Part shown: positions 1,927 through 21,396 of the stretch, piece after piece
Numbering within the stretch: the stretch's first letter is position 1
How the letters are laid out: each line of letters starts with the position of its first letter
Source of the DNA: a virus
Taxonomy: Duplodnaviria; Heunggongvirae; Uroviricota; Caudoviricetes
Strand: one strand, 5' to 3'
Length of the DNA: 21,849 bases
Virus record (IMG/VR): IMGVR_UViG_2693429728_000015
Span: 1 to 21,849 of that record
Made by a program: the position numbers and the translations under genes
Notes under the pieces: generated by a model
Databases searched by the model: none
What the model was told of the DNA's origin: nothing
What the model saw: only the letters and a program-made list of their open reading frames with translations

Positions 1927-1927
1927 T

Positions 1928-3676
1928 ATGACAGTGGCAAATTATAATTCTCTTGTCCAGAAAACTTTCTGCGAAAATGCAATTCGTTCCGTTGTCATGA
2001 TTGATGACGATTTTCTGACGTATTCTGAATCAATCAGGGCGTTGAATAACGAAGTTGATTTAGACTACAACAAAATTGACTCATCTAAACGAGCCGCTAC
2101 TCTTGAGAGCTTTTTTCAATCTAAAAATATGATTTGTGATGTTGACAATGGTTCTGTTAATTTCGATGTGGATCGGATTAGAAAATCAGATCTTATTATT
2201 GTAGATTATCATCTTGATAATAATGCACCTGATAAAACACTTAAACTATTACAAGATTTGAAAGGCTCCGATCATTTAAATATGATTGTAATATATACTA
2301 GAGAGAATTTAGAAACGGTTTGGATGCAGATATCATCGACTCTCAAAGGTGCTCTGGATATCAACAGCTTGATCATTGACTACGATAATGAAGATGTCCA
2401 AAGTTATTGGGAAGACGTTGTATTACCGAACTTAAATGATAATGGTAATAAAGCTCTCACAAGAGATGAAACAATAGCCTATATTAAAGACAGTAAGCCT
2501 TGTAGAAGAATTAAAAGATTAATACATGATGATGCTGTGTTGGAGGATCAAAAGGATAAAAACTTCATTGCAAAAATGATTGCAGAATATGCTGTGTCTA
2601 GAAATGCAATTATTTCTAGCAACACATCTGGCAATGTCATTCGGGGTGATGAAAGCGGAGTAAAATGGATTCAATGTGGTAATATCTTTGTCTCCCTATT
2701 TCATAAGGTTCAAGATGATCATGAAAACGATGGAGATAGGATTTGGCAAACTCTCAATGATTCTCTCATTGAATGGAAACCATCTTATTATCAGTTAATA
2801 AAATCTGAAATTCAGAATGCAATCGAAGCTGAGGCTTTATCTTTTGTAAATCATTTGGCTAACGATCATTACGGTCAAGCTGCGTGGTTAAATGAGATAT
2901 TAAAATCAGACTCGCCTGATATTAGATGTAGAAATATTGACTTTGTATTTGGTAATTTATCAGAAGAGCTTTATCAAAGACTTAAAAATAATAATACGCT
3001 GGATGAATTTATCAAAAGTGTTTTTGATAGCTATTCAAATGAATACGCTAACAGCGGAGTTGCTGCATTGCTCCAATATTGCTCTTCAAAAATGGATCTG
3101 CCATCAAATAATGATACTTATCACGAAATGTATCATGCTTTAAATATGAATTTGTCTTCAAAGAATTTTGAAGATGGTCATATTTCTACTGGCACTATTT
3201 TCTTTGATACAGAGTCGAACAAATGGTATTTATGTGTATCTGCGGCATGTGATTTGGTTCCTACTCAGGGTAACGACCCTCACCATGTAAGATTAAGTCC
3301 GCACAGGCTCATTAAAGTTCTGGAGCTTTTTAACGCCAGTCAGAGTAAAGCATTGCCATTTGCTGAACATTCGAAATATATATATGTAATGCATAAAAAT
3401 CAAAGAAAATATCTCTCTATTTTCGAAGGGGATAAAACGCTTCCTGTTGTTGATTATATGGTGGTGTTGAATCATGGAACAACAGTTGATGGCGAAGAAA
3501 AAAATATTATTTCTGCCGTGTTTTTAAGTAATATGGATGGCAACGTGCAAAATGTTCCTGTCCGACTCAAACTTAAATCTCAACTGAGAACTGGTTATGC
3601 AGAAAGATATCAGGCTATAGCGTCTCAGTATAGCTCAAGGATTGGTGTGGATTATGTATCAATGATGCTACCATAA
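1928..3676 (+). CDS. Receiver(REC)-like domain protein with a roughly 450-aa uncharacterised C-terminal region (putative effector)
   Basis: GGAG lies 7 nt upstream of the ATG at 1928, 2 nt after the upstream stop. An alternative ATG at 1910 overlaps the upstream gene. The N-terminus shows receiver hallmarks: acidic pocket VVMIDDD, candidate phospho-acceptor LIIVDYHLD (Asp codon 2204-2206) and a VIYT threonine about 31 aa later. I recognise no domain in the remainder (for example WYLCVSAACDLVP). Confidence 0.65.
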   Translation: MTVANYNSLVQKTFCENAIRSVVMIDDDFLTYSESIRALNNEVDLDYNKIDSSKRAATLESFFQSKNMICDVDNGSVNFDVDRIRKSDLIIVDYHLDNNAPDKTLKLLQDLKGSDHLNMIVIYTRENLETVWMQISSTLKGALDINSLIIDYDNEDVQSYWEDVVLPNLNDNGNKALTRDETIAYIKDSKPCRRIKRLIHDDAVLEDQKDKNFIAKMIAEYAVSRNAIISSNTSGNVIRGDESGVKWIQCGNIFVSLFHKVQDDHENDGDRIWQTLNDSLIEWKPSYYQLIKSEIQNAIEAEALSFVNHLANDHYGQAAWLNEILKSDSPDIRCRNIDFVFGNLSEELYQRLKNNNTLDEFIKSVFDSYSNEYANSGVAALLQYCSSKMDLPSNNDTYHEMYHALNMNLSSKNFEDGHISTGTIFFDTESNKWYLCVSAACDLVPTQGNDPHHVRLSPHRLIKVLELFNASQSKALPFAEHSKYIYVMHKNQRKYLSIFEGDKTLPVVDYMVVLNHGTTVDGEEKNIISAVFLSNMDGNVQNVPVRLKLKSQLRTGYAERYQAIASQYSSRIGVDYVSMMLP

Positions 3677-4201: not shown

Positions 4202-5431
4202 TTAGGCTACCAGAGCATTTGATCTTTGAGCTTGAACGTAATCACTCCACCATTGCATCAAACTCTGTCGCTCTATCAGATATTCTGCACGATTGTATGC
4301 TGCGATAATTTCATCTTTTTTCGAGTGGGCAAGCGCTGCCTCAAGAACTTCAGCTCTGAATTTACCAGACTCCTCTGCCGCTGTTCGTGCAATAGAACGC
4401 ATACCGTGAGCTACAAGCTCGCCTCCGAACCCCATTCGGATGATAGCTGCGTTGGCTGTTTGTTCATGCATATGATTAAGAGGCGCTTTTATGCTGGGGA
4501 AAACCCATTCTCTATGCCCACTTATTGATTTCATTAATTCAAGGATGCGCAAAGCTTCTTTACTCAAAGGAACTTTGTGAAGCTTTTTCATTTTCATGAA
4601 ATCAGCAGGAATGTTCCAAATGCTGTTGGTTGTATCAATATCAGACCACCTTGCGCGAACGGCTTCACCCGGACGAACCCATGTCAACAATTGCCATTCA
4701 ATTAGCATACGTGTTTCCAACCGGATTGACGCATTCGTCAAAGATTCCATAAACCTTGGCAATTCGCTTGGGGGAAGGGCAGGCATATTTTGCTTTTTTG
4801 GTTTACTGAATCTTTGACCAAGGTTGTCAGCCGGGTTGAACTCAATAAGTTCTTCAGTAGCTGCCCACCGGAAGATTTCATTCAGACGTGAAATGATACG
4901 GCGTAGAGTTTCCAATACGCCTCGTTGCTCAATAGGATCAAGGTGTTGTTTTAAGAGCTTAGGTCGGATCTCATTGATAGGGACATTACCCAGACCGGGA
5001 AAGACATTTCTCTCTAAGCTGCGCCAGATGTCTGCTGCATGGTCTTGTGAGATACCTGATGTCTTTACCTTCTCATCTAACCATTTCCGCGCTACGGCTT
5101 GGAGAGTGTGCTCAGTAGCACTCTTTAATGCCTTCGCCTTATCGTTGTTATGGATTTGGGGATCAACACCATTTGCCAGAAAGGAGAGATATTCATCACG
5201 TAAGGCTCTGGCTCTTGCAAGGGTAAGGTGAGGATATGTCCCAAGGCTCATTTTGGTTCTTTTCTTGCTCACTGGTACTGCATACCTGAAATACCAATTT
5301 TTCTTGCCTCCTTTCGCCAAAGGAGCGATTCGTAGAATCAGACCATCACCGTCAAACAAGTTGATTTCTTTATCGGCTGGCTTGGTGCTTTTGATTTCAG
5401 TGTCAGTGAGCTTCTTAGCGATTTTTGCCAT
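4202..5431 (-). CDS. P4-type (tRNA/tmRNA-associated) tyrosine integrase
   Basis: The N-terminus MAKIAKKLTDTEIKSTKPADKEINLFDGDGLILRI is typical of P4-like integrases. The C-terminus has ...VRPGEA..., HGMRSIARTA and AYNRAEYL (catalytic Arg, His-x-x-Arg and Tyr). Overall it resembles CP4-57 IntA as I remember it. I prefer the ATG at 5429-5431 (GAGGG upstream) to the ORF-track start at 5473, which has no Shine-Dalgarno sequence. Confidence 0.9.
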   Translation of the reverse strand: MAKIAKKLTDTEIKSTKPADKEINLFDGDGLILRIAPLAKGGKKNWYFRYAVPVSKKRTKMSLGTYPHLTLARARALRDEYLSFLANGVDPQIHNNDKAKALKSATEHTLQAVARKWLDEKVKTSGISQDHAADIWRSLERNVFPGLGNVPINEIRPKLLKQHLDPIEQRGVLETLRRIISRLNEIFRWAATEELIEFNPADNLGQRFSKPKKQNMPALPPSELPRFMESLTNASIRLETRMLIEWQLLTWVRPGEAVRARWSDIDTTNSIWNIPADFMKMKKLHKVPLSKEALRILELMKSISGHREWVFPSIKAPLNHMHEQTANAAIIRMGFGGELVAHGMRSIARTAAEESGKFRAEVLEAALAHSKKDEIIAAYNRAEYLIERQSLMQWWSDYVQAQRSNALVA

Positions 5432-5528
5432 TTTGGGACCCTCGGTTTTTGGACCCTTCTTAATGGGTCCCATTCAGGGTGCCATAACTCGTAGTTCTCA
5501 GCAATTCTCACTGGACGACAATAGACGT

Positions 5529-5804: not shown

Positions 5805-6572
5805 TTATTGTTTTATTATCTTAACGTGCGCCGTTCCTCCATTGACTTTTTCGAAATCTTGGAACAAGGCAGGGGCATCTTGAGTTACAATATCGTAAAG
5901 TTTTTCTGAAACTGTTCTCATTTCATAGTCACCCTGTATTGCTCCTCTCATTTCGAAGAAGTGTCGAATTGCGCGAGCATTTGCTGTGACGATTATTTTT
6001 GTCTCGGTTGCATTAGGCAATATAGAGCGAGAAGCGCTTCTTAGGGCCCGCATTTTTTCTTTTTTGTTCTCATACGATTGGTTTTCACGGATTTTTTTCA
6101 AGGATTGCTTATAAAAATCCAGACTACTTTCAATATGTTGGCACCATGACTTAAACAATTCTGGGTCATTTTTTACTTCTATAGGGGCTACGAATTCAGC
6201 ATCGGATTCATCATGATACTGTTGGGATAACTGGCTATATGAAAAACCAGCTCTATGCCGAACTAGCTGGTGTGTAAATGCACGAGATACCCCAGTAATT
6301 AAAAAGGTCCAGTTCAAATGTTCTAAGACACTTTCATGCCCTTGAATAATTAAATTGTTGATATATTGACTTGTAGTCCGTGGAGACTGCTTATCCTCTC
6401 CAAAAGACATATAACATAGCCTGCCAGCGGCCTCTACCAGAAGCTCAGCTTCGGTCGCCTGCCCTTTGCGAACCCATTGCAATGATGATGTGTTTAAAAA
6501 ATCATCAAAAACATTACTTTCAAATGAAGGGTGTGATATGCATTTTACTGATAAATCAGAGATTTTTATCAT
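5805..6572 (-). CDS. Divergent ThyX-like protein (flavin-dependent thymidylate synthase fold)
   Basis: ThyX signature blocks are present: AAGRLCYMS, QGHESVLEH, THQLVRHRAGFSYSQLSQQY (compare the RHR...S....SxRY motif) and ARAIRHFFEMRG. GGGAG lies 5 nt upstream of the ATG, and the start is 2 nt after the upstream stop. The gene is AT-rich relative to the phage backbone. Confidence 0.75.
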   Translation of the reverse strand: MIKISDLSVKCISHPSFESNVFDDFLNTSSLQWVRKGQATEAELLVEAAGRLCYMSFGEDKQSPRTTSQYINNLIIQGHESVLEHLNWTFLITGVSRAFTHQLVRHRAGFSYSQLSQQYHDESDAEFVAPIEVKNDPELFKSWCQHIESSLDFYKQSLKKIRENQSYENKKEKMRALRSASRSILPNATETKIIVTANARAIRHFFEMRGAIQGDYEMRTVSEKLYDIVTQDAPALFQDFEKVNGGTAHVKIIKQ

Positions 6573-6574
6573 TT

Positions 6575-7360
6575 TTACTCCCGTATAGCTTTTGGGGTGC
6601 TTACTTTAGCATCAACCTTTGGTTCGTTTGATTTAGCATTTTTTAGTAATTCAACGGTGCTTTTTAGGCTATTTATTTCATTTTGTTGAACTTTTATTGT
6701 TAATTCAAGATCTTTTGTACTACTGACATTACTGGATACTATTTGAAATAAGAAAGGAATTGCTAGGGTTATCAACGTTAGCATTAAGGCTGCTATCGCA
6801 ATTATAAAGCCAGTTTTTTTCGCAATGATTTTATTGATTTCTTTCGGAAGTCGTTTATCAAGTCCTGCAAAATCCTTTCCCATTCTAGAAAGTTGATCAT
6901 CATCCAATTTATTTACGATTTTTCCTTGGTAACCTTTAGTCGGTATTATTGTTTTAAATAATAACATTCGGGCTACTGCAGAATTTTGTGTCAATGAGAA
7001 TGGTTCTTTTGACATATTTACAAGATATATTGAAATTATGCCATTATATCCAGGGTCAATATGCCCTGGATTCGTCATGATAATTCCATTTTTTGATAGT
7101 GTGTTTCTTGGGAATATTACACCAGCTAAATTTTTTGCAAGTTGGAATTTTTCATTTAACTCTAATATTACAGTTTCCCCTGGCATCAGGATATGGTTGT
7201 TACGTGTTTTTTTATTGTCTTGACAGTCTGGTATATGTATTGTTTTTACAGAGAGATCAATGCTTGCAGATTGAACTTTAAATGTTCCATTTAATACCGT
7301 TAATGGATCAAAAATGTTGCCTCGCTGAATTTCATCATTGATTTCTATTTCAGACAGCAT
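6575..7360 (-). CDS. dUTPase/dCTP-deaminase (Dut/Dcd) superfamily protein with a C-terminal transmembrane helix and a coiled-coil tail
   Basis: Blocks align with E. coli Dut and Dcd: SASIDLSV, MPGETVIL, FPRNTLSKNGI and GHIDPGYNGIISIYLVNMSKEPFSLTQNSAVARMLLF. A hydrophobic segment, GFIIAIAALMLTLITLAIPFLFQIV (about nt 6737-6811), is followed by a heptad-like tail. AGGA lies 8 nt upstream of the ATG, 26 nt downstream of the int stop. Confidence 0.7.
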   Translation of the reverse strand: MLSEIEINDEIQRGNIFDPLTVLNGTFKVQSASIDLSVKTIHIPDCQDNKKTRNNHILMPGETVILELNEKFQLAKNLAGVIFPRNTLSKNGIIMTNPGHIDPGYNGIISIYLVNMSKEPFSLTQNSAVARMLLFKTIIPTKGYQGKIVNKLDDDQLSRMGKDFAGLDKRLPKEINKIIAKKTGFIIAIAALMLTLITLAIPFLFQIVSSNVSSTKDLELTIKVQQNEINSLKSTVELLKNAKSNEPKVDAKVSTPKAIRE

Positions 7361-7386: not shown

Positions 7387-8400
7387 TTATAAATTAGCCA
7401 GAGGGTTTTTTATTACTGCATCTTCAAGATGCTCTGGGGAAAAATGTGCATAAATCATAGTCATTTTTATATCAGAGTGGCCTAAAATATCTCGTAAAAC
7501 CAAAATATTACCACCATTCATCATAAAATGGCTGGCGAATGTATGGCGCAGAACGTGGGTGCATTGGCCCTCTGGTAACTCAATGTCAGCTCGCTTTACT
7601 GCTCGTTCAAAGGCTTTTCTGCAAGGAGTGAATAACTTCCCTCTGTTCTTAGGGAGTTCGTCATACAGATCCTGAGATATCGGCACGGTACGGTTTTTCT
7701 TGCCCTTAGTCTTGGTATAGGTGATCCGGTATTTCGATAACTGATGGCCCTGCAGATTTTCGGCTTCACTCCAGCGCGCGCCGGTGGCCAGGCATATTTT
7801 TGCAATTAAAAGTAGACTGGGGCTTTGAGAATCAGCACAGGCATCCAGCAGACGTTTAATTTCTTCCGGGGTCAGGAACGCCAGTTCACCCTCAGCAATT
7901 TTAAATGTTGGCAGCCCGGCAAGCGGATTGGGGGCTGACCAGTGGCCCAACTTTTTCAGTGTGCCAAAAACAGATGATAGGTTGCGCTGTTCAAGGTTTA
8001 CAGTGCGGGGCTTAACGGGCGACATAAGCGTGCCCTCTTCATTTCGCACTTCACCTTTTAGCCGCGCTTCTCGGTATTTAGTAAAATCACCGGCTGTCAG
8101 CTCTGAGGCGATGGGATCGCCTAGACCATTACAGATAATTCTAAGTTTCGCCATGAGGCGCTTGGGGTCTGCGAGTGTTTGACCATACAGGGAATACCAC
8201 TGCTCAATTAATTCTGATAGGTGTCGCCGATCTTCCTTTTCCCCCAGCCATGGCTTTTTGTTCACTTCTTCCATTGTGAAGCTTTCAAAAGCAATGGCTT
8301 CGCCTTTCGTAGCAAATTGCTTACGCACGCGCTTGCCATTGCGTCCATGGGGATAGCACTCGCACAACCATTTACCGTTTGGCTGTTTTCTGACAGTCAT
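7387..8400 (-). CDS. int: P2/186-type prophage tyrosine integrase
   Basis: It is 337 aa, the same length as P2 Int, and collinear with it as I recall it (GRNGKR.RK.F..K.EA.AFE; LATGARWSEAE; HVLRHTFASHFMMNGG; MIYAHFSPEHL). Confidence 0.92.
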   Translation of the reverse strand: MTVRKQPNGKWLCECYPHGRNGKRVRKQFATKGEAIAFESFTMEEVNKKPWLGEKEDRRHLSELIEQWYSLYGQTLADPKRLMAKLRIICNGLGDPIASELTAGDFTKYREARLKGEVRNEEGTLMSPVKPRTVNLEQRNLSSVFGTLKKLGHWSAPNPLAGLPTFKIAEGELAFLTPEEIKRLLDACADSQSPSLLLIAKICLATGARWSEAENLQGHQLSKYRITYTKTKGKKNRTVPISQDLYDELPKNRGKLFTPCRKAFERAVKRADIELPEGQCTHVLRHTFASHFMMNGGNILVLRDILGHSDIKMTMIYAHFSPEHLEDAVIKNPLANL

Positions 8401-11530: not shown

Positions 11531-11829
11531 CAAGGGCAGTGCGTATCCATCAATTAAAAATTGCACCTAAGTATTTCAACGCTGTGGTTGCAGGTCAAAA
11601 GACGGCTGAACTTCGTAAAGACGATCGTGGCTATAAAGTTGGTGATGTTCTTTCTCTTTGCGAATGGAAGCATGGCGTATTTACGGGTAGGGAATGGGCC
11701 GCTGTTATCTCTCATGTGCTTCCGGTTAATGACGTCATGGCAGTTTCAGAACAATGGGTGATGCTATCAATTCGCCCATTAACCCCATTAGAAGCTTTAG
11801 GATATGTTATTGCAGGAGGTGCTGTATGA
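11527..11829 (+). CDS. ASCH/DUF3850-like small protein
   Basis: ATGA start/stop overlap at 11527. The N-terminus [35 protein letters not shown] resembles the ASCH-fold DUF3850 family as I recall it. Confidence 0.6.
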
Positions 11830-12683
11830 GTACCATCCTGAAATGGGCGGGTAATAAAACTGCCATTATGTCCGAACTGAAAAAACATCTTCCTGCTGGC
11901 CCGCGACTGGTTGAACCTTTCGCGGGTTCCTGTGCTGTGATGATGGAGACGGATTACCCCAGCTATCTGGTTGCGGATATTAATCCTGATTTAATCAACC
12001 TCTATAAAAAGGTTGCTGCTGATTGCGAGGCGTTTATATCTCGTGCCAGAGCTTTATTTGAGGAAGCAAACAGGGAGTTGGCTTATTACAACATAAGGCA
12101 GGAGTTTAATTACTCCACTGAAATTACTGATTTCATGAAAGCGGTATATTTCCTGTATCTCAATCGTCATGGTTACCGTGGGTTATGTCGTTATAACAAG
12201 AGCGGGCATTTCAACATTCCATACGGTAATTATAAAAATCCGTATTTCCCTGAAAAAGAAATTCGCGCATTTGCAGAGAAAGCCCAGCGAGCAACGTTTA
12301 TCTGCGCCAGCTTTGATGAAACGCTGGCGATGCTGCAGGTGGGGGATGTGGTGTATTGCGATCCGCCTTATGACGGTACGTTTTCCGGCTATCACACTGA
12401 TGGTTTCACTGAAGATGACCAGTATCACCTGGCATCCGTTCTTGAACATCGGTCATCAGAAGGACATCCGGTCATTGTTTCTAACAGTGACACATCCCTG
12501 ATCCGTTCGCTGTATCGAAATTTTACTCACCACTACATCAAGGCAAAACGCAGCATCGGTGTAGCAGCTGGTGAGAGTAAATCTGCAACAGAAATCATCG
12601 CTGTTTCCGGGCCGCGCTGCTGGGTGGGATTTGATCCTTCGCGTGGCGTGGATAGTTCTGCCGTGTACGGAGTGCGTGCATGA
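11826..12683 (+). CDS. dam: Dam-type DNA adenine (GATC) methyltransferase
   Basis: [11 protein letters not shown]...[10 protein letters not shown]...[10 protein letters not shown]...YCDPPY, which includes the DPPY catalytic motif. At about 285 aa it is similar in size to E. coli Dam. ATGA overlap with the upstream gene. The ORF-track start at 11754 is an upstream extension. Confidence 0.9.
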
Positions 12684-15094
12684 GCCATGCTGATATGAAC
12701 AACTGCAGCGGCTTTAACGAGGTCGCCGCAGCATTCTCATGGAACAGCCCGAAAAAGGCCATTAACCCTTATCTGGACCCGGCGGAAGTTGCGCCGGTTT
12801 CTGCGCTTTCAAACCTGATCACTCTGTACGCTACTGATAACGAGCAGGAACAACTGCGCCGCGAGGCACTGAGTGATCAGGTTTGGGAGCGTTATTTCTT
12901 TAATGAATCCCGTGATCCTGTCCAGCGCGAAATGGAGCAGGATAAGCTCATTAGCCGGGCAAAGTTGGCGCATGAGCAGCAGCGTTTTAACCCGGACATG
13001 GTCATTCTGGCAGACGTTAACGCCCAGCCTTCCCATATCAGCAGGCCGCTGATGCAACGTATTGAATACTTCAGCAGCCTTGGCAGGCCAAAGGCTTATT
13101 CCCGCTATTTGCGTGAGACGATTAAGCCATGTCTGGAACGGCTGGAGCATGTACGCGACAGTCAGCTATCCACTTCTTTTCGCTTTATGGCAAGCCATGA
13201 AGGGCTGGACGGCCTGCTGATTCTGCCTGAAATGAGTCAGGATCAGGTGAAACGCCTGTCCACCCTTGTTGCTGCGCATATGAGCATGTGCCTTGATGCA
13301 GCTTGTGGCGATTTGTATGCCACCGATGACGTTAAGCCAGAAGAAATCCGCAAGACATGGGAAAAGGTGGCAGCAGAAACCCTGCGACTGGATGTCATAC
13401 CGCCTGCGTTTGAGCAACTCCGCCGGAAAAGAAACCGCCGCAAACCTGTGCCCTATGAACTCATTCCGGGTTCGCTGGCGCGTATGCTGTGCGCCGACTG
13501 GTGGTATCGGAAATTATGGAAGATGCGTTGCGAATGGCGGGAAGAGCAGTTGCGTGCTGTCAGCCTGGTCAGCAAAAAAGCATCTCCCTATGTCAGCTAT
13601 GAAGCCGTGATGCATAAACGTGAGCAGCGCCGTAAGTCGCTGGAGTTTTTCCGTTCTCATGAACTGGTGAACGAAGACGGCGACACGCTGAACATGGAGG
13701 ATGTGGTAAACGCCAGCAGCAGCAACCCGGCGCATCGCCGCAATGAGATGATGGCCTGTGTTAAAGGCCTGGAACTTATCGCGGAAATGCGTGGTGACTG
13801 CGCCGTTTTCTACACCATCACCTGTCCGTCACGTTTCCATTCCACGCTAAATAACGGCAGGCCAAACCCGACCTGGACCAACGCGACAGTAAGACAAAGC
13901 AGCGATTATCTGGTCGGCATGTTTGCTGCATTTCGTAAGGCTATGCACAAAGCCGGGTTGCGCTGGTATGGCGTGCGGGTGGCTGAGCCACATCATGACG
14001 GTACAGTTCACTGGCACCTGTTGTGTTTTATGCGCAAAAAAGACCGCCGCGCCATCACTGCATTACTGCGTAAGTTTGCCATCCGTGAAGACCGCGAGGA
14101 GCTGGGCAATAACACGGGGCCGCGCTTTAAGTCTGAGTTGATTAACCCGCGCAAAGGAACGCCGACAAGCTACATCGCGAAATATATCAGTAAGAACATT
14201 GACGGGCGTGGTCTGGCTGGCGAGATCAGCAAGGAAACGGGTAAATCCCTGCGTGATAACGCTGAATACGTGAATGCCTGGGCGTCTCTGCATCGTGTTC
14301 AGCAATTCCGCTTCTTTGGTATTCCGGGGCGTCAGGCTTATCGTGAACTGCGATTGCTGGCTGGTCAGGCGGCAAGGCAGCAGGGTGACAAAAAAGCAGG
14401 TGCGCCGGTACTGGATAACCCACGCCTTGATGCCATCCTGGCTGCTGCTGATGCTGGCTGTTTTGCGACCTACATCATGAAGCAGGGCGGCGTGCTGGTT
14501 CCCCGCAAATATCACCTTATCAGAACAGCTTATGAAATTAACGAAGAGCCGACCGCCTATGGCGATCACGGTATTCGTATTTATGGCATCTGGTCACCCA
14601 TTGCAGAGGGCAAGATCTGCACTCATGCAGTGAAGTGGAAAATGGTTCGTAAGGCCGTTGACGTTCAGGAGGCGGCAGCCGAACAGGGCGCTTGCGCCCC
14701 TTGGACTCGTGGCAATAACTGTCCCCTTGCTGAAAATTTGAACCAACAAGGGAAAGACAAATCAGCTGATGGGGATACCAGAACGGACATTACCCACATG
14801 GATGACAAGGAGTTGCACGATTACCTGCACAGTATGAACAAAAAAGAGCGCCGGGAACTGGCTGCAAGGTTACGCCTGGTGAAACCGAAACGGCGTAGAG
14901 ACTACAAACAGCGAATTACAGACCATCAACGACAGCAGCTCGTCTATGAACTGAAGTCCAGAGGATTTGATGGCAGCGAGAAAGAGGTCGATTTACTCCT
15001 TCGCGGCGGCAGTATTCCGTCAGGAGCAGGCCTGCGTGTCTTCTATCGGAACCAGCGTTTGCAGGAAGATGATAAGTGGCGGAACCTGTATTAA
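12680..15094 (+). CDS. A: P2 gpA-family replication initiation endonuclease (rolling-circle nickase)
   Basis: An HUH-type motif, [11 protein letters not shown], and the paired-tyrosine motif YIAKYISKN. The size and the position downstream of dam, at the end of the early operon, both fit. ATGA overlap with dam. Confidence 0.9.
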
Positions 15095-15186
15095 TTACGC
15101 GGGTTAACAATTCGTGCTCTTAATAATACCAGGCATATCAGGCTGATGAACGTAAAAAAACGTTTTACATCAGTAAGATTATCATA

Positions 15187-15206
15187 TACTGTAAATATAA
15201 ACAGTG
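15187..15206 (+). promoter_or_regulatory. LexA (SOS) box overlapping a promoter for the downstream two-gene operon
   Basis: TACTGTAAATATAAACAGTG fits CTGT-N8-ACAG and is close to the consensus TACTGTATATATATACAGTA. A TTTACA ... TATACT promoter-like pair lies immediately upstream and overlaps it. Confidence 0.75.
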
Positions 15207-15247
15207 GTTATCTATACAGTATTGTTTGCGGTGTCATAGGAGGAAAG

Positions 15248-15436
15248 ATGCAGGACTATTTTTTGGAGTCTTTGAAGCTCCAGCGCATTGATTTTTTTCT
15301 TAAGCTTGTAGCGGCTAGTGAGTGTAGTGATGAAGAGAAGGGGCTGGCCCTGCAGTGGGTTTCTGAATTGACTGATGAACTCATGGCAAAAATCAGAAGC
15401 CACGAATACAACCGCTCAATGGATGTCATCAGCTGA
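15248..15436 (+). CDS. SOS-regulated small protein, possibly a Tum-type antirepressor module
   Basis: AGGAGG lies 6 nt upstream of the ATG at 15248. The ORF-track start at 15146 would run across the promoter and LexA box. The functional assignment rests only on position, by analogy with the LexA-controlled tum of phage 186. Confidence 0.5.
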   Translation: MQDYFLESLKLQRIDFFLKLVAASECSDEEKGLALQWVSELTDELMAKIRSHEYNRSMDVIS

Positions 15437-15446
15437 GGTGACTTTT

Positions 15447-15680
15447 ATGCGCATTGAAATAATGATCGATAAAGAGCAGAAGATTAGCCAGTCTACCCTG
15501 GACGCTCTGGAGTCCGAGCTTTACCGCAACCTGCAACCCATCTATCCCAAGACCGCTATCCGCATCCGTAAAGGGTCGGCAAACGGCGTTGAGCTGAGTG
15601 GCTTAAAGCTTGATGAAGACAAAAAGCGGGTGATGGAAATTATGCAACAGGTTTGGGAAGACGACAGCTGGCTGCACTAA
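15447..15680 (+). CDS. DinI-family protein
   Basis: MRIEIMIDKEQKISQSTLDALESELYRNL...IMQQVWEDDSWL aligns with E. coli DinI (MRIEVTIAKTSPLPAGAIDALAGEL...ILQETWESADDWF). GAGGTG lies 7 nt upstream of the ATG. Confidence 0.85.
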   Translation: MRIEIMIDKEQKISQSTLDALESELYRNLQPIYPKTAIRIRKGSANGVELSGLKLDEDKKRVMEIMQQVWEDDSWLH

Positions 15681-15798
15681 GGAACGTTCCTGATGTAAGA
15701 ACTTGAATCTGACGTCAGCAAGGTTGAACAACGAGAGTAGCGAGGCGTTAGCCATGGGTAAAAAAGACAGTAATCACCAGATTATTTATCGGGGCTAG

Positions 15799-16014
15799 GT
15801 GCTGGAACGTTTAACCCTTGGCGACTGGGTCTTCTTTCAACGCCCAAAGGAGTGTGGCGGAGGTTTTTGGTTGGGCCGCATCTATGAAGACTGCTTCTGG
15901 CTTGAGCTGGAATTCCCCGTTTCGCTATATGACGGCCTGGGGTTTTTGATGGAAGTCACTAGGGTAGAGCAGAGAAGTGATGAGGTTGACGCGAATTATC
16001 CCCTGTTTGATTAA
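15799..16014 (+). CDS. Hypothetical 71-aa ORF with a GTG start
   Basis: Only an open frame with a weak GGGG upstream. The product is Trp/Phe-rich and I recognise no motif. Confidence 0.25.
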   Translation: MLERLTLGDWVFFQRPKECGGGFWLGRIYEDCFWLELEFPVSLYDGLGFLMEVTRVEQRSDEVDANYPLFD

Positions 16015-16033
16015 AAATGTATTAGCTTATAAT
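16007..16033 (+). promoter_or_regulatory. Sigma-70-like promoter for the 203-aa membrane-protein gene
   Basis: TTGATT (16007-16012) or TTTGAT (16006-16011), a 15-16 nt spacer, then a perfect TATAAT (16028-16033), 30 nt upstream of the ATG. Confidence 0.45.
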
Positions 16034-16062
16034 GGAATACTATTTTTGCAGGTGGGGGCGCA

Positions 16063-16674
16063 ATGGATTTAGTCTTTAAAGTTCTGGCTTCGTTGGGTGG
16101 GGTGTCTTTTGTTGCATCTGGCATATTTGTTTGGATCGGGAAAGTTTATTTAGAAAGATATAAGTCGCGGCTAAACAAAGATATTGCTGAATTTCAATCA
16201 CAACTGAGTGCAACTAATGAAAGAATAAAGGCTAAGTTAGACAATTCTGTTTATGTAACGAAAGCGTATTTTGATAAGGAGTTATCAGCATATAGTCTCA
16301 TTTGGAATTCGATGTTTGAAACCAGAGAAAGCGTGCTTAAGCTGAGGCCTGCGCTGGATCATGTTGACCCCAACGAACCATTTGAAGAGAGAAAATTTAG
16401 AAGGTTGAAAGTTTTTTCTGATGCATTTAACACTTTTGTTACAAGTGTTGAATCTAACAAACCGTTCATCTCACCAGAGGTTTATATAATCTTGGACCGT
16501 TTCCGGAAGGAATGCCTTTCAGAGTCAATATCGTTTAAGCATAGCGATCCAGAATTTGACGGGCAAAATTATTGGAAAGAGGCGGAGTTGAACCATACAA
16601 CCATCATCAAGCTTTTTGATGAGACGTGTGATGCAATTCGAGACAGGATGCACACATTAACTGTGGTTACGTAG
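16063..16674 (+). CDS. Single-pass membrane protein of unknown function (prophage cargo, or moron)
   Basis: The N-terminus has a hydrophobic helix, LVFKVLASLGGVSFVASGIFVWIG. The rest is helical and charged. The gene has its own promoter and terminator and is AT-rich relative to the backbone. Confidence 0.7.
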   Translation: MDLVFKVLASLGGVSFVASGIFVWIGKVYLERYKSRLNKDIAEFQSQLSATNERIKAKLDNSVYVTKAYFDKELSAYSLIWNSMFETRESVLKLRPALDHVDPNEPFEERKFRRLKVFSDAFNTFVTSVESNKPFISPEVYIILDRFRKECLSESISFKHSDPEFDGQNYWKEAELNHTTIIKLFDETCDAIRDRMHTLTVVT

Positions 16675-16766
16675 GTTTCCAAAAAGTCTCGATGCCCGCT
16701 TTGGAGATTGTGCATGTCTATGCCGCATGAATCCGCATGATCGTTTGAGGATCGTTTTAGCTGAGG

Positions 16767-16790
16767 CCCGCCAGGAGTGGCGGGATTTTG
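16767..16790 (+). terminator. Rho-independent terminator after the 203-aa gene
   Basis: CCCGCC (16767-16772), loop AGGAGT, GGCGGG (16779-16784), then ATTTTG. Confidence 0.55.
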
Positions 16791-16834
16791 CTTATGTCAT
16801 GCAGGCGCATGAAAACCGCTACATAAAGCGGGCA

Positions 16835-16853
16835 GGCGTGGCGGGGATACGAG
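16835..16853. other. Candidate cos site (19-nt cohesive-end sequence of a P2/186-family phage)
   Basis: GGCGTGGCGGGGATACGAG shares its first 13 nt with the 186 cohesive end as I recall it (GGCGTGGCGGGGAAAGCAT). The following GCGCGCT matches the sequence just inside the P2/P4 left end (GGCGAGGCGGGGAAAGCACTGCGCGCTGA). Confidence 0.65.
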
Positions 16854-16870
16854 CGCGCGCTCATTACTTT

Positions 16871-16890
16871 TATAATTCTAGGGTTATAAT
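16871..16890 (+). promoter_or_regulatory. Possible promoter(s) for the KAP NTPase gene
   Basis: Two perfect TATAAT hexamers (16871-16876 and 16885-16890) lie 30-45 nt upstream of the ATG. I could not identify a convincing -35 element. Confidence 0.3.
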
Positions 16891-16918
16891 ACGGGGCTGT
16901 CTTTCTAGGAGAAAACAC

Positions 16919-18571
16919 ATGTCCTTAGAGTTTATCAAAGAACAGTTGTCAGATTTTATCTCATCTACAGAACCAGAAGTAATGGCTATACAGGGTGAAT
17001 GGGGAATTGGTAAAACCTATACTTGGAATACGTTCCTAAAAGATAATAAAGATAAGGTTGCATTTAATAGATATAGTTATGTCTCTCTTTTTGGTATAAA
17101 TTCACTAGATTCTTTAAAGTATTCTATTTTTGAGAATGCAATTACAAAGGAATATATTGGAAATAAACCTGATTTGGAGACAGCAACAACAAACGCAAGT
17201 GGACTTTTTGAATCATTTTCTCGAAAAGCAGCAGGTTTGTTAAAAGAAGTTCCTGTTGTAAAAAACTTCTCTACGACACTTGAAGCAATGTCATTTCTGA
17301 CCGTTTCTAAAATGATTGTAGTAATAGATGACTTAGAAAGGCGTGGCAAAAATTTAGATGTTAAAGATGTTTTAGGGCTAGTATCTCTATTAAAAGAGCA
17401 GAAGGATTGTAAGGTGGTTCTATTGCTTAACAATGGCACAGCTAGTATGGAGGATTATTCTACTTATAAAGAAAAGGTCATTGATAGAGATATCACTTAC
17501 AATCCAACACCAGAAGAATGCGCAGATATAGCCTATAAAGGTGATTCTCATGTTTATAACTTGTTAAGTAAATATTCCATTTCTTTAGGTATCAAGAATA
17601 TTCGAATCTTAAAAAAGATAGAACGTTTTTTCGTGTCCTTAATACCAAATATTATAGGTGATGTTGAGACAATTTCAAATGAAGTTGCGCATTCATTAAC
17701 TCTGTATTGTTGGAGCCATTACGGATTTTCTCCAGAGGGAGATGTGCCATCACTAGAATATATTAGGGGAGTGAGGAATATATATACTTATAATGACAAG
17801 GAAGAAGGCCATGAGAAAATCTGGCTTAATACCTTGCTTAAATATGGATATAGAAAAACGAATGATCTTGATGAGGTTCTTATTGATATGGTTAGATATG
17901 GCTATCTTGATAAGAGCAGTTTCCAAAGACAAATAAGCCTAAGGAATGAGGAGATTACGCGTGATAATAAACGAGGTTCCTTATCTGAGGCATGGCAGTT
18001 CTTTCATAATTCATTTGATGACAATCAAAATCAGGTTGTTGACAAGCTATATCAAGCGGTGGTTGATGGGATGAAGTATGTGACTCCAAGTGATTTAGAT
18101 AATGTTGTCGGACTATATAGGGATTTCGGAGAGAATGCTAAGGCGAGTGAATTGATTGAACAGTTTATTAATTATGGTAACGATGCTCTAAAGGAATATG
18201 TTCAATCTATTTATGTGAATGTTCATCCCGTAAGAGATACTGAGTTGTTGTCAAAAATTCAAGCCTATTCTAAGATTATAAATATTGATGGTTCAATATA
18301 TGATGTTCTTAAGAAATTATCAGGTCAGAATGGTTGGTCTGATAGACATGAGGAAATATTGGATGCTGCTTCAGTAGATGACTACTATCAATTATTTAAA
18401 AATGTCATTCTTGATGGTGGTGATTCAATAATAGCTACGGCGCTTAAATTCGGAAATTTTAGTAATGGTTCTGATAGAATGAATCGTATAGGGAAAAAGG
18501 CAAGGGATGCCTTGATAAGAATTGGAGATGAATCGGCGATTAATAAAATGCGTGTAAGGCGATTTTTGTGA
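16919..18571 (+). CDS. KAP-family-like P-loop NTPase, 550 aa (prophage cargo; candidate anti-phage protein)
   Basis: AGGAG lies 8 nt upstream of the ATG at 16919. Walker A is IQGEWGIGKTY (nt 16994-17017). Walker B is MIVVIDDLERRGKNLDVKDVLGLVSLLKE (nt 17312 onward), the DDL(D/E)R signature of KAP NTPases. This is the most AT-rich gene in the window. The ORF-track start at 16727 runs through the terminator and cos and is rejected. Confidence 0.75.
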   Translation: MSLEFIKEQLSDFISSTEPEVMAIQGEWGIGKTYTWNTFLKDNKDKVAFNRYSYVSLFGINSLDSLKYSIFENAITKEYIGNKPDLETATTNASGLFESFSRKAAGLLKEVPVVKNFSTTLEAMSFLTVSKMIVVIDDLERRGKNLDVKDVLGLVSLLKEQKDCKVVLLLNNGTASMEDYSTYKEKVIDRDITYNPTPEECADIAYKGDSHVYNLLSKYSISLGIKNIRILKKIERFFVSLIPNIIGDVETISNEVAHSLTLYCWSHYGFSPEGDVPSLEYIRGVRNIYTYNDKEEGHEKIWLNTLLKYGYRKTNDLDEVLIDMVRYGYLDKSSFQRQISLRNEEITRDNKRGSLSEAWQFFHNSFDDNQNQVVDKLYQAVVDGMKYVTPSDLDNVVGLYRDFGENAKASELIEQFINYGNDALKEYVQSIYVNVHPVRDTELLSKIQAYSKIINIDGSIYDVLKKLSGQNGWSDRHEEILDAASVDDYYQLFKNVILDGGDSIIATALKFGNFSNGSDRMNRIGKKARDALIRIGDESAINKMRVRRFL

Positions 18572-18578
18572 TTTTTAT

Positions 18579-18600
18579 AGGGGTGATTAACCCCTTTTTA
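18579..18600 (+). terminator. Rho-independent terminator after the KAP NTPase gene
   Basis: AGGGGT (18579-18584), loop GATTA, ACCCCT (18590-18595), then TTTTA. It lies 8 nt after the stop and abuts the portal-gene stop at 18602. Confidence 0.65.
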
Positions 18601-18601
18601 T

Positions 18602-19633
18602 CTAATTTAATGAGTAATCATTAAATGCTATGATTTTTTCATTTAGCCAAGTATTAATTTCTATAAGCCTTTTTTGTAACGGAATTAATTCATTTCGGAC
18701 AAAGACTTTACTAGCCTTTTCCACATCCCCAAACCCCCCAACATTATTCGGCATTATCCCCATCATTTGCGGCGGCACGCGGTGTGCCGCCATCATGTCG
18801 TCCCGGCTCACGTTCTTGATATTCAAAAACTCATCCTTCGCTGCGACCTCTGACAACGGGATAATCTGAAGCCCGTCCTTTTTGCCGTTAGGCGAGTACA
18901 TAAACAGGTTGCGGAAGTTGCCCGGACCTTTGGCGCTTTTCATCGCGTTGCGGAGGTTGTTCACATCCTCTTGGTTTTGCGCAGCATCGGTCATATACAT
19001 GATGAAGCCTGCATGGCTGCCGTTAATGTAATACTTACGGCGGAACAACGTGGCGGACTCGTTGAGCAGAGCTGACGGAATGGCAGAAAGATAACCGGGC
19101 AGGCCGTAGATCTCCTGGTTGATATCCGGTTCCATCAGATGAAAGATGCTGCCTTTCGTGAACTGATACGGCTGCGTAGTCATGCCGTATTGCACAAACC
19201 AGTAGGTATCCAGGTCTAACCCGCGTCGGGTGTATTTTGCCAGCGCAGGTTCAAGGGCGATAACTTCACCGAAGCGGTTCGTGCGTTTCTCCAGGTAAGC
19301 GTTACCAAATACCAGATAGTCCTGCACAAAACGTGAAAAAGCCTGCTGGCTGAGAAGCGGGTGAGGGATGTAGGTACTGGTCAGAATGTTGCATTTCACC
19401 GCAATTGGTGAACTGTGATGCACGGCAGCGCGGAAGGTTCGCGCCAGTCCGTCAAAACTCACTGGCGGCTCATACCAGCGATCTGTCTGTACGCATTCTA
19501 CATAGTCCAGCAGTTCGCGGCGGTCCAGAACAGGAACGGGATCGCCAAAGCTGAATGCTTCGGCTGAAGTCTGGCTTTTGTGCTGAATCTGGTTCGTCGA
19601 CACAGCGCGGTTCTTCTTACTCTTTCCCATCAA
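18602..19633 (-). CDS. Q: P2 gpQ-family portal protein
   Basis: It is 343 aa, the size of P2 Q. It is adjacent to and overlaps (ATGA) the terminase gene on the same strand, the characteristic Q-P arrangement divergent from O. Confidence 0.9.
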   Translation of the reverse strand: MMGKSKKNRAVSTNQIQHKSQTSAEAFSFGDPVPVLDRRELLDYVECVQTDRWYEPPVSFDGLARTFRAAVHHSSPIAVKCNILTSTYIPHPLLSQQAFSRFVQDYLVFGNAYLEKRTNRFGEVIALEPALAKYTRRGLDLDTYWFVQYGMTTQPYQFTKGSIFHLMEPDINQEIYGLPGYLSAIPSALLNESATLFRRKYYINGSHAGFIMYMTDAAQNQEDVNNLRNAMKSAKGPGNFRNLFMYSPNGKKDGLQIIPLSEVAAKDEFLNIKNVSRDDMMAAHRVPPQMMGIMPNNVGGFGDVEKASKVFVRNELIPLQKRLIEINTWLNEKIIAFNDYSLN

Positions 19634-21396
19634 AAAATCTCCACAATATTGCTGGTATTGGCGGACTCGCCCTGCAGCGGTTCGTTAAACAGTGCGTGCA
19701 TGGTTGCCCAGGCCAGATCGGCATGGCTGGCTTCTTCGCTGCGGCTGGCTTCATAGGTCGGGCGGTTGCCGCTGGCGGTGGTGGCGCGACGGATTGCCAT
19801 AAATGACTGCGCTATGTCGGTGTGTCCGGCGTCAAACTCCAGACGGCGGTGACTGATAATGTCGTAGGCCTTGAGTACCAGGGCATTTTTAACGTTGGGG
19901 TTGTAGACAAACTCCCGGACGGCAGGAAAAAACGCTTTCACGTTCTCGTAAACCCCGTGACCGACGCCGGTTGAGTCGATACCGATGTATGTCACGTTGT
20001 ACTGTTCAGTCAGTTTTTTGATGGCGTCAGCCTGGGCGCGGAAGTCCATCCCGCGCCACTGGTGACGCTCAAGAATGCGGAACTTACCGCCCGGCACGGC
20101 TGGCGGTGCCACCACCACGCATCCGGCGCTGTCGCCGTTCTGCGTACCTTTTGCCGGGTCATAACCGATCCACACTTCGCGCCAGCCAAACGGGCGCAGC
20201 GCCAGTGCATGAAAGTCGGTCCAGACTTCCCAGCTGTCCACCATGCACGCCTGTAGTTCGCTGAGCGGGAACACGGACGCGAGATCGTCCACAAACTCGC
20301 ACATCAGCAGGTTCTGGTATTCGTCCGGGCTGTATTCCATGCGCAACTGGTCAAGGTCGAACAGGTTACAGCCACTGCGCACCGCATCTTCCACGGTGAC
20401 TATCTGGCGGTATTGCCCGTCAGCGCACAGCAGGCCGGGGGCCAGATTGCTGTGGGACAGATCAATGTCCACCTTGTCGGCTTTGTTGCGTCCACGGTTG
20501 AACAGCGCACCGGACCAGAACGGATAAGCACTGTGGGTCAGGCTGGATGGTGTGGAAAAATAGGTCTGCCGCCATTTCTTGTGAATAGCCATACCGGAAG
20601 CCACTTTGCGTAGCTCCTGAAATTTCGGTATCCAGAAATATTCATCCAGATACAGGTTGCCGTGATAACTCTGGGCCGTGCGGGCATTGGTGCCGAGGAA
20701 GTAAAGCGTGGCCCCGTTAGGAAGCACCATCGGATCGCCTTTCAGTTCCACATCCACTTCTTTGGCGAAGTCGATGATGTACTGCTTAAAGACGTGGGCC
20801 TGTGCCTTACTGGCGGAAAGGAAAATCTGGTTACGTCCGGTAAGCAGGGCGTCAATCAGGGCTTCACGGGCAAAGTAAAAGGTCGCGCCGATCTGGCGTG
20901 ACTTCAGCAGGTTGCGGATGCGGTTGGTTTTTCCGGCTTCCCACCAGTGGCGCTGGTAGTTGAACATGGAGGAATGGAAGATTTCTTCCAGCTTCTCAAT
21001 CTGTTCATCGGTGAAGACATTCTTTTCCGGCTGACGGCGCGGGCCTTTGTTGCGGTTGGCGACGTTAGGGTTTAAGTCAGCTTCGTTGCCGCCATTGTTA
21101 AACTTGCCGATCCGCGCGTGGCGCTCAGACTGGCGCGCCAGCAGGTCAATCTCTTTGAAATCTTTCCCTTCTTTGTGCTCCTTCATAATGAGCTGGCAGT
21201 AGCGTGCGGCGGTGGTGAGCTGCATCTGATCCAGCGGCCCATAGTCACCCCACTTGTCGCGTTTTTTCCAGCTGTGAACGGTTGCAACTTTCTCGCCCAG
21301 CATTTCAGCAATGCGGGCGACGCGGTATCCCTGAAAGTACAGCAGCATGGCCTGCCGACGGGGATCGAGATCTGCGGGTGTCAGTGTGGTGTTCAT
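19630..21396 (-). CDS. P: P2 gpP-family terminase large (ATPase) subunit
   Basis: It is 588 aa (P2 P is about 590). The N-terminus has an HTH-like segment, YFQGYRVARIAEMLGEKVATVHSWKKRDKW. The gene order is Q-P and it is divergent from O. Confidence 0.9.
   Translation of the reverse strand: MNTTLTPADLDPRRQAMLLYFQGYRVARIAEMLGEKVATVHSWKKRDKWGDYGPLDQMQLTTAARYCQLIMKEHKEGKDFKEIDLLARQSERHARIGKFNNGGNEADLNPNVANRNKGPRRQPEKNVFTDEQIEKLEEIFHSSMFNYQRHWWEAGKTNRIRNLLKSRQIGATFYFAREALIDALLTGRNQIFLSASKAQAHVFKQYIIDFAKEVDVELKGDPMVLPNGATLYFLGTNARTAQSYHGNLYLDEYFWIPKFQELRKVASGMAIHKKWRQTYFSTPSSLTHSAYPFWSGALFNRGRNKADKVDIDLSHSNLAPGLLCADGQYRQIVTVEDAVRSGCNLFDLDQLRMEYSPDEYQNLLMCEFVDDLASVFPLSELQACMVDSWEVWTDFHALALRPFGWREVWIGYDPAKGTQNGDSAGCVVVAPPAVPGGKFRILERHQWRGMDFRAQADAIKKLTEQYNVTYIGIDSTGVGHGVYENVKAFFPAVREFVYNPNVKNALVLKAYDIISHRRLEFDAGHTDIAQSFMAIRRATTASGNRPTYEASRSEEASHADLAWATMHALFNEPLQGESANTSNIVEIF

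Follow-up and report, generated by a model that had tools for sequence, protein, structure and literature searches.

We analysed a 21,849-nucleotide stretch of DNA (hereafter the window), comprising positions 1 to 21,849 of IMG/VR virus record IMGVR_UViG_2693429728_000015, a member of the Caudoviricetes, and we focus here on a short G+C-rich block that separates two A+T-rich cargo genes. To the left of this block lies a gene for a 203-amino-acid (aa) protein with one N-terminal transmembrane helix (16063..16674, + strand), and to its right a gene for a 550-aa KAP-family P-loop NTPase (16919..18571, + strand). Around these cargo genes, a gpA replication gene, a DinI gene, a portal gene and a gpP-type large terminase gene are arranged in P2 order; of the P2-family prophage, the window covers the early arm and the beginning of the late arm. 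We consider it very probable that the block, at 16708-16860, is the cohesive end site (cos) of a Fels-2/186-like P2-family prophage, that it would be cut as in P2, and that it splits the cargo hotspot found at this place in the family into slots that are exchanged separately.

Base composition changes sharply between the two genes. The G+C fraction is 0.576 over 16710-16860, compared with 0.386 in the gene for the 203-aa protein and 0.338 in the KAP gene, while the wider interval 16680-16918 averages 0.506; the initial annotation had described a GC-rich cos segment between two AT-rich cargo genes, and these values agree with it. The 153-bp block at 16708..16860 (+ strand, 58% G+C) is the sole sequence between the DinI and portal genes that is common to Fels-2-type phages. 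A homology search with the block matched 85 phage records with a best E of 1e-61, far beyond chance. Its limits, determined by blastn and MAFFT against MLG42, SEN8, Fels-2 and Cartapus, fall at 16708/16712 on the left and at 16860/16864 on the right, and Escherichia coli matches to it begin at 16710/16711. Outside these limits, homology to other Fels-2-type phages was lost on both sides in every comparison; it stops at the left edge of the block and 6-11 nt to the right of the cohesive end described below. From left to right the block contains GCATG motifs at -123, -110 and -100 (positions are numbered from the predicted nick), a hairpin with a T tract, another GCATG at -28, an AAAACC-hairpin element, the cohesive end, and CGCGCGC. 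The window was also scanned for known RNA families and tRNA, and none was found.

The predicted cohesive end is a 19-nt 5' extension at 16835..16853 (+ strand), GGCGTGGCGGGGATACGAG. It is followed at 16854..16860 by CGCGCGC, the only conserved sequence to its right. Circular junctions were assembled from the public records of P2, 186, PSP3 and P4, of which the P2, 186 and PSP3 records carry an annotated cos. The nick flank and the 19 nt of the window aligned ungapped and in register with the annotated P2, 186 and PSP3 sites, as well as with P4 and SEN8, with GCAT-AAAACC-(small hairpin)-GGGC preceding the end and [T/C]GCGCGC following it. Identity over the 19 nt was 19/19 with SEN8, 15/19 with 186 and with PSP3, and 14/19 with P2 and with P4, and the end is of the G+C-rich GGCG(A/T)GGCGGGGA type that characterizes P2-family cos sites. 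The cos of SEN8, a plaque-purified Salmonella phage, has been reported (PMC5427200), and the last base of the SEN8 record is exactly the one that corresponds to window position 16834. In the record of Escherichia phage Cartapus, a putative cos is annotated over the same sequence. The cos core GGCGWGGCGGGGA has one exact match in the window, at the cohesive end; another match, with two mismatches, lies within the gpA coding sequence, and about 0.35 matches are expected by chance. The alignment with P2, 186, P4 and PSP3 thus places the cohesive end where the initial annotation had predicted it, within a block that aligns with P2-family cos regions. By homology, the nicks would fall at 16834/16835 on the top strand and at 16853/16854 on the bottom strand.

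A 55-bp cos core is described as common to P2 and P4 (Ziermann & Calendar 1990, as cited in passages of PMC5694545, PMC3931495 and PMC9594776), and we infer that it corresponds to positions -29 to +26. The equivalent stretch of the window (16806..16860) contains the GCATG at -28, the AAAACC motif and the small hairpin CCGCT-N6-AGCGG. Its ungapped identity is 42/55 with P2, 44/55 with 186, 43/55 with P4 and 52/55 with SEN8, and that with PSP3 lies within 42-45/55; P2 and P4, as a reference pair, are identical at 52/55. The core common to helper phages and satellite P4 is therefore present here. Among 120 distinct family sequences, the stretch from -37 to +26 hardly varies; within it, -20 to +13 were set by the pattern used to find the sequences. 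The motif [T/C]GCGCGC is kept family-wide, and beyond +26 conservation is abruptly lost. P2 and P4 have only 7 nt in common on the right of the cohesive end. The location also fits, since Pfam matches place the block between gene A and portal gene Q and beside a gpP-type large terminase. The window is therefore like the cos sites of P2, 186, PSP3 and P4 in the GGCG(A/T)GGCGGGGA G+C-rich 19-nt end, in both flanks, in the offsets of the GCAT motifs and in its position between gpA and the portal. It differs in what follows: P2, 186 and PSP3 have approximately 165-180 bp from cos to the portal stop, including the terminator tQ/tW, whereas the window has a 1.8-kb cassette instead.

The GCAT motifs at -123 (-122 in P2), -110, -100 and -28 are position-conserved in P2, 186, PSP3, P4, SEN8 and the window. 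The distal GCATG triplet, at -123, -110 and -100 (16712..16739), provides candidate recognition repeats for the small subunit of the terminase, and this stretch has the highest GCAT count per 127 bp of the whole window. The satellite P4 is reported to have only the 55-bp cos region in common with P2 (PMC9594776). Because the GCAT offsets are common to P2 and P4, which reportedly share only this region, we infer that the motifs are terminase recognition elements. Of the 120 distinct family sequences, 82 have GCAT at -110 and 89 have it at -100, and the distal GCATs occur at fixed spacing in 44-74%.

Several observations weigh against the interpretation of the block as a working cos site. The window holds only part of a prophage, about 14 kb, and in a close relative, that of E. 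coli Z1323, the portal gene is a truncated pseudogene. Homology was the basis for the cos features of SEN8 and Cartapus, which carry the label putative, and no run-off, read-pile-up or other physical end mapping was found for any phage with an ATACGAG-type end. P2 and 186 have other bases in the last six positions of the cohesive end (AAAGCAC/T, versus ATACGAG here). About 30-55% of family sequences lack the distal GCAT repeats or have them at other offsets, which makes the role of these repeats uncertain. Finally, a promoter scan called no + strand sigma-70 promoter for the KAP gene.

The incompleteness of the element bears on the possibility that the block is a relic cos in a defective prophage, which would never be cut, and that the two cargo genes are never physically separated. 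A near-identical, KAP-carrying relative, that in Z1323, has its truncated portal fused to tail genes, and a second integrase island abuts the element in the window. However, the portal (343 aa) and terminase (588 aa) open reading frames (ORFs) of the window are intact and full length when compared with those of P2, 186 and Fels-2, and every core motif of the block is intact. The block is also 100% identical in E. coli 504237 and in IMG/VR locus L124, and 94.8% identical in the isolated phage MLG42. We therefore regard a relic as unlikely.

The remaining concern is whether the nicks of the ATACGAG subtype fall where they are placed here. They could be shifted, or the overhang could be of a length other than 19 nt, in which case cos would still lie in the block but the end coordinates given here would be wrong by a few bases. 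The window does diverge from P2 and 186 in the 3' third of the cohesive end, and no experimental end determination was found for this subtype; given the divergence of the last six bases, the exact bottom-strand nick is extrapolated. Both nick contexts, GGGCA|GGCG and |[T/C]GCGCGC, are nevertheless conserved, and they are spaced exactly 19 nt apart, the same as in P2, 186 and P4, which makes a displacement of the nicks decidedly unlikely. We accordingly retain the reading in which the block is a cos site with a 19-nt end at 16835-16853.

Within the block, between the distal GCAT repeats and the cohesive end, a G+C-rich hairpin at 16767-16784 followed by ATTTTGCTT was picked up by a terminator scan (16767..16790, + strand), at the position where a terminator had been proposed initially. 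It folds with -18.4 kcal/mol (z = -2.56 relative to shuffles). Across all Fels-2-type blocks its stem is conserved and its loop is variable. Phages 186 and P4 have hairpins with different stems at the same position, PSP3 folds weakly there, and P2 and many P2-type loci are without a hairpin at that position. A hairpin at -70 to -50 as a universal element of cos was therefore rejected, and we read the structure as a terminator and not as an essential part of cos. It is likely an intrinsic terminator that stops rightward transcription from the left cargo gene or the SOS operon before cos.

Comparison with relatives revealed that the cargo on the two sides of the block assorts separately. Cartapus is 97.6% identical over 15000-16864, with the same 203-aa gene and cos, and then carries an unrelated DUF4145 gene until 18666. 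Locus L124 is 100% identical up to 16859 and continues with a different cassette. The KAP cassette is absent from both, and homology, having ended at 16864 and 16859, respectively, resumes at 18666. E. coli 504237 is 99.5-100% identical on the left up to 16860, whereas its KAP allele on the right is only ~80% identical, a contrast that points to a recombination joint at cos. Conversely, E. coli Z1323 is 99.9-100% identical over 16861-18665, is without the 203-aa gene, and has a DinI that is 85% identical. A search of E. coli complete genomes gave 180 records with at least 95% identity. In the rows that were examined, the alignment begins at 16710/16711 and extends to the right only; a single genome spans the whole query. 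From these alignments, the window is a mosaic in which a left module of the 504237/Cartapus type is joined at the cos block to a right module of the Z1323 type. As expected of the gpA-gpQ hotspot, gene arrangements on one or both sides differ among Cartapus, L124, Z1323, 504237, Fels-2, SEN8 and MLG42, and, as expected of the cos-to-portal hotspot, non-homologous DNA lies directly to the right of cos, where it replaces the spacer of 186 and P2. Because relatives carry one cargo without the other, and because the breaks coincide with the edges of cos, we conclude that cos splits the gpA-gpQ hotspot into two independently assorting sub-loci.

That the 203-aa protein and the KAP NTPase instead form one two-gene system straddling cos, with a functional adjacency, is highly improbable: the pair does recur in E. 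coli 504237 with a KAP allele only about 80% identical, so that the pairing either persisted or formed twice, but the 203-aa gene is found without KAP beside the DUF4145 gene (Cartapus) or another cassette (L124), Z1323 and the further E. coli rows that were examined have KAP but no 203-aa gene, the two genes are kept apart by the conserved cos block and a hairpin that resembles a terminator, identity in 504237 is 99.5-100% on the left against about 80% on the right, and PADLOC models the KAP protein as a single-gene candidate.

By homology with P2, we propose that the locus, read as a cos site between two slots, would work as follows. The terminase would bind conserved sequences on the gpA side, for which GCAT(G) at -123, -110, -100 and -28 and the AAAACC-hairpin are candidates. 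The gpP-type large terminase is the enzyme expected to cut cos, and it would then introduce nicks at the staggered positions predicted above, yielding linear virion DNA with 19-nt 5' overhangs of GGCGTGGCGGGGATACGAG. The fixed cos island would divide the variable gpA-gpQ hotspot into two sub-loci. The gpA-side slot would house the 203-aa transmembrane protein, whose transcript is likely ended by the hairpin within the cos block, and the portal-side slot a self-contained KAP cassette that extends from 7 nt past the cohesive end into the last ~21 portal codons. Cassettes on each side would swap separately. The simplest and probable route would be homologous recombination, for which the cos block and the DinI/gpA or portal flanks would serve as anchors; homologous recombination is discussed as an option for hotspot swapping in general in the relevant section of PMC13586616. 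The two cargo genes would be neighbors in the circular or prophage form. In the virion they would lie at opposite ends of the DNA, with the stop of the 203-aa gene 160 nt from the right end and the KAP ATG at base 85 of the linear genome.

We also asked how often the portal-side slot is occupied, using samples that are redundant and non-random, such that the fractions are rough. Of 104 IMG/VR P2-family loci found by the cos pattern, 80 have a spacer of 153-180 bp between cos and the portal gene and 22 have one of more than 400 bp; that of the window is about 1740 bp. An exact ATACGAG-type core was present in 34 species-representative genomes, and 25 of these allow the spacer to be measured. 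The portal side spans 621-2981 bp and contains ORFs (of at least 80 aa in each genome) in 21 of the 25, and the slot is empty, at 166-176 bp, in the other four. With few exceptions, the portal-side ORFs of these species genomes lie on the + strand, so that they point from cos towards the portal gene and run convergently with it; this may reflect selection or a common ancestry of the cassettes. Left and right slots occur in every combination: both empty, both occupied, or either one alone occupied.

It is already established that cargo can lie to the left or the right of cos and that a single phage can have it in both places, and this layout is usual for the lineage: in Fels-2 and SEN8, annotated genes flank cos in both directions, the interval from cos to the portal gene has been known as an insertion hotspot since 1996, and the gpA side of cos corresponds to the tin/old region of P2. 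Fels-2, SEN8 and Cartapus (Felsduovirus, Elveevirus) have the identical 19-nt end and CGCGCGC, within a 153-bp block that is 88-98% identical. In the isolated phages SEN8 and Cartapus, cargo begins directly after CGCGCGC. The genes that flank cos are STM2726 and STM2723.1 in Fels-2, a DNA-binding protein gene on one side and hypothetical and HNH genes on the other in SEN8, and the same 203-aa gene and the DUF4145 gene in Cartapus. The window thus differs from all three in its portal-side gene, which encodes a KAP NTPase.

The cos-to-Q interval was singled out as an insertion hotspot because retrons Ec67 and Ec86 replace the DNA between cos and the terminator in a 186-like prophage (Dodd & Egan 1996, as cited in passages of PMC5694545 and PMC7826664). 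The same passages place phiCTX (Nakayama 1999) behind this hotspot, and PMC5694545 adds phiRSY1. As in the hotspot described there, foreign DNA in the window begins right beside cos and replaces the sequence between cos and the terminator of the portal operon. In contrast to the cases those passages describe, the replacement in the window passes the terminator and extends into the last ~21 portal codons, has its own hairpin, and carries a KAP NTPase and not a retron or toxin. The whole gpA-gpQ interval is a P2 defence hotspot that is described as 'adjacent to the cos site' (Rousset 2022, PMC9122126; NAR 2026, PMC13586616, in the sections that deal with this locus). The window resembles this hotspot in having variable AT-rich accessory genes by cos that are rapidly swapped between near-identical elements. 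Those sections treat gpA-gpQ as a single hotspot, whereas the window has two slots, a fixed 153-bp cos block between them, and separate exchange histories. Measured against these accounts, in which such a division is not spelled out, the separate histories of the two slots and the boundary that lies just 7 nt from the cohesive end are a refinement and not a new kind of locus.

Two database records with the same kind of site deserve mention. A 4.5-kb contig (JAEYLX010000057.1) from a 'Bacillota bacterium' metagenome-assembled genome carries an enterobacterial P2-type cos with DinI and portal homologues, and is probably a binning contaminant. A 775-kb Klebsiella record, labelled as a 'plasmid' (NZ_CP170106.1), carries the same cos type and a portal homologue.

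The portal-side cassette (16861..18665, + strand) consists of a 58-bp leader, the KAP gene, a hairpin at 18579-18595 and a recoded 3' tail of the portal gene. The leader has a G+C fraction of 0.345 and contains two TATAAT hexamers and an AGGAG ribosome-binding site. The initial annotation had counted TATAAT hexamers among the contents of the cos segment. Both exist, at 16871-16876 and 16885-16890, but they lie outside the conserved block and are part of the cassette leader, not of cos; no convincing -35 element was seen by eye.

The identity of the right-hand gene is supported by Pfam, PADLOC, phrog_4740 and PGAP. KAP_NTPase (PF07693) matches residues 8-193 with E = 3.6e-7 and 30.2 bits, above the family's gathering cut-off of 20, so that the flank is the KAP NTPase gene named initially. 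The PADLOC model PDC-S49 matches with E = 3.2e-27, and phrog_4740 aligns with residues 1-550. The gene is a candidate anti-phage gene; 'Reve', another KAP-domain single-gene system, which comes from P4 hotspots, is reported as protective in the part of PMC13586616 that describes it. The KAP cassette had no match among 50,697 phage records, and the cos-KAP junction had no exact match in one-genome-per-species contigs. The cassette itself is common in E. coli chromosomes.

The frame of the KAP gene is open upstream, and an ORF of 614 aa (16727-18571) runs through cos. This ORF had been flagged as an annotation trap, a warning that our data bear out. PGAP calls the same KAP gene in E. coli as 1653 nt, equivalent to a start at 16919 with AGGAG upstream, and the PHROG, PADLOC and Pfam profiles begin at residues 1-8 of this short form. 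Stops close the frame upstream of 16919 in 6 of 12 relatives, one of which, E. coli Z1323, has the same KAP gene, and substitutions in the block are distributed 13/11/9 by codon position, with no third-position bias. Because the frame is closed in half of the relatives and there is no codon periodicity, the extension to 16727 is not coding, and a protein encoded across cos from the ATG at 16727 was rejected. A 48-aa hypothetical protein is likewise annotated across the cos block of Yersinia phage MLG42 (PP599993.1, 3020-3163); as its frame is not conserved among relatives, this coding sequence (CDS) is probably spurious.

The 203-aa protein on the gpA side matches phrog_26391, a family of unknown function, over its full length (E = 1.6e-140), and no PADLOC defence model matched it. 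Its Kyte-Doolittle maximum of 2.01, at residues 7-25, corresponds to a single N-terminal hydrophobic helix, in keeping with the membrane-protein gene that had been named as the left flank. The gene adjoins different right-hand cargo in Cartapus and in L124. A homologue in NZ_CP025862.1 (2564-3175) is annotated as 'valyl-tRNA synthetase' in RefSeq. The protein also has a sub-threshold coiled-coil match to Val_tRNA-synt_C (E = 0.0093, 16.7 bits versus a cut-off of 25.9), and the label seems to stem from such a match.

On the other side of the KAP gene, on the - strand, lie the portal gene (a homologue of P2 gpQ and 186 W, 343 aa, 18602..19633, Pfam Phage_portal) and the large terminase gene (a P2 gpP homologue, 588 aa, 19630..21396, Pfam Terminase_6N, Terminase_6C and the gpP-like Terminase_5). 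The AT-rich cassette includes the last ~21 portal codons (18602-18665): the G+C fraction of 18572-18700, which takes in the last ~21-30 portal codons, is 0.264, compared with 0.523 for the rest of the portal gene. This AT-rich tail is 100% identical to that of the KAP-sharing E. coli, and the portal-like end that it encodes still aligns with the portals of P2, 186 and Fels-2; the portal protein was also aligned with that of PSP3. A foreign portal 3' end apparently came in with the KAP cassette when it was exchanged. A cohesive end immediately next to the portal stop would have contradicted the initial annotation, and we looked for one. The gap between the KAP gene and the portal stop is 30 bp with an AT-rich hairpin and no cos core, so that a second cos was rejected at this position and the objection fails.

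To the left of the cargo, the gpA replication gene (Pfam Phage_GPA) lies at 12680-15094 and a DinI/Tum-like gene at 15375-15680, and a P2-type integrase, a CI-type repressor and a Dam methylase are encoded further left in the window. The Dam methyltransferase gene, of the D12 class (11754-12683), is directly upstream of gpA and overlaps its start. The retron-Ec67 element and a related Klebsiella prophage are reported to have Dam methylase genes too, and the gene of the Klebsiella prophage is also directly upstream of the next one (PMC7826664). Just outside the P2-type integrase gene (7387-8400), ThyX (Thy1) and dCTP-deaminase/dUTPase-like genes occupy 5805-7360; the interval between integrase and att is described as a minor cargo hotspot of P2 in the corresponding section of PMC13586616. 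At the far left, the stretches 208-3676 and 4202-5473 hold two overlapping ORFs, one for a histidine-kinase-like protein (HEF_HK/HATPase_c, 572 aa) and one for a Response_reg_2 protein (588 aa), and after them the gene of a P4-type integrase (Arm-DNA-bind_3, 423 aa), the second integrase in the window. The kinase, regulator and P4-type integrase look like a separate integrative island beside the P2-like prophage.

The main value of these results is as an aid to annotation, since they give the predicted genome ends of the prophage. They also caution against ORF calls across cos, of which the 614-aa read-through here and the 48-aa CDS of MLG42 are examples. Surveys of defence genes in the P2 gpA-gpQ interval should split the locus at cos, because unrelated neighbors would otherwise score as a two-gene system. 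The recurrent sharp boundary 7 nt from the cohesive end sets a practical upper limit on the portal-side sequence of cos, which is useful for the design of P2/P4-type cosmids. More tentatively, we speculate that the junctions of natural cassettes act as an extensive in vivo deletion series of P2-family cos, in which case everything the terminase needs may be contained in ~127 bp on the gpA side, the 19-nt end and 7 bp beyond it, leaving these phages with two slots at the ends of their DNA. One of the two slots would always be the first DNA into a newly infected cell, so that its occupancy and the orientation of its genes, which for portal-side ORFs is away from cos in nearly all loci surveyed, could be under selection.

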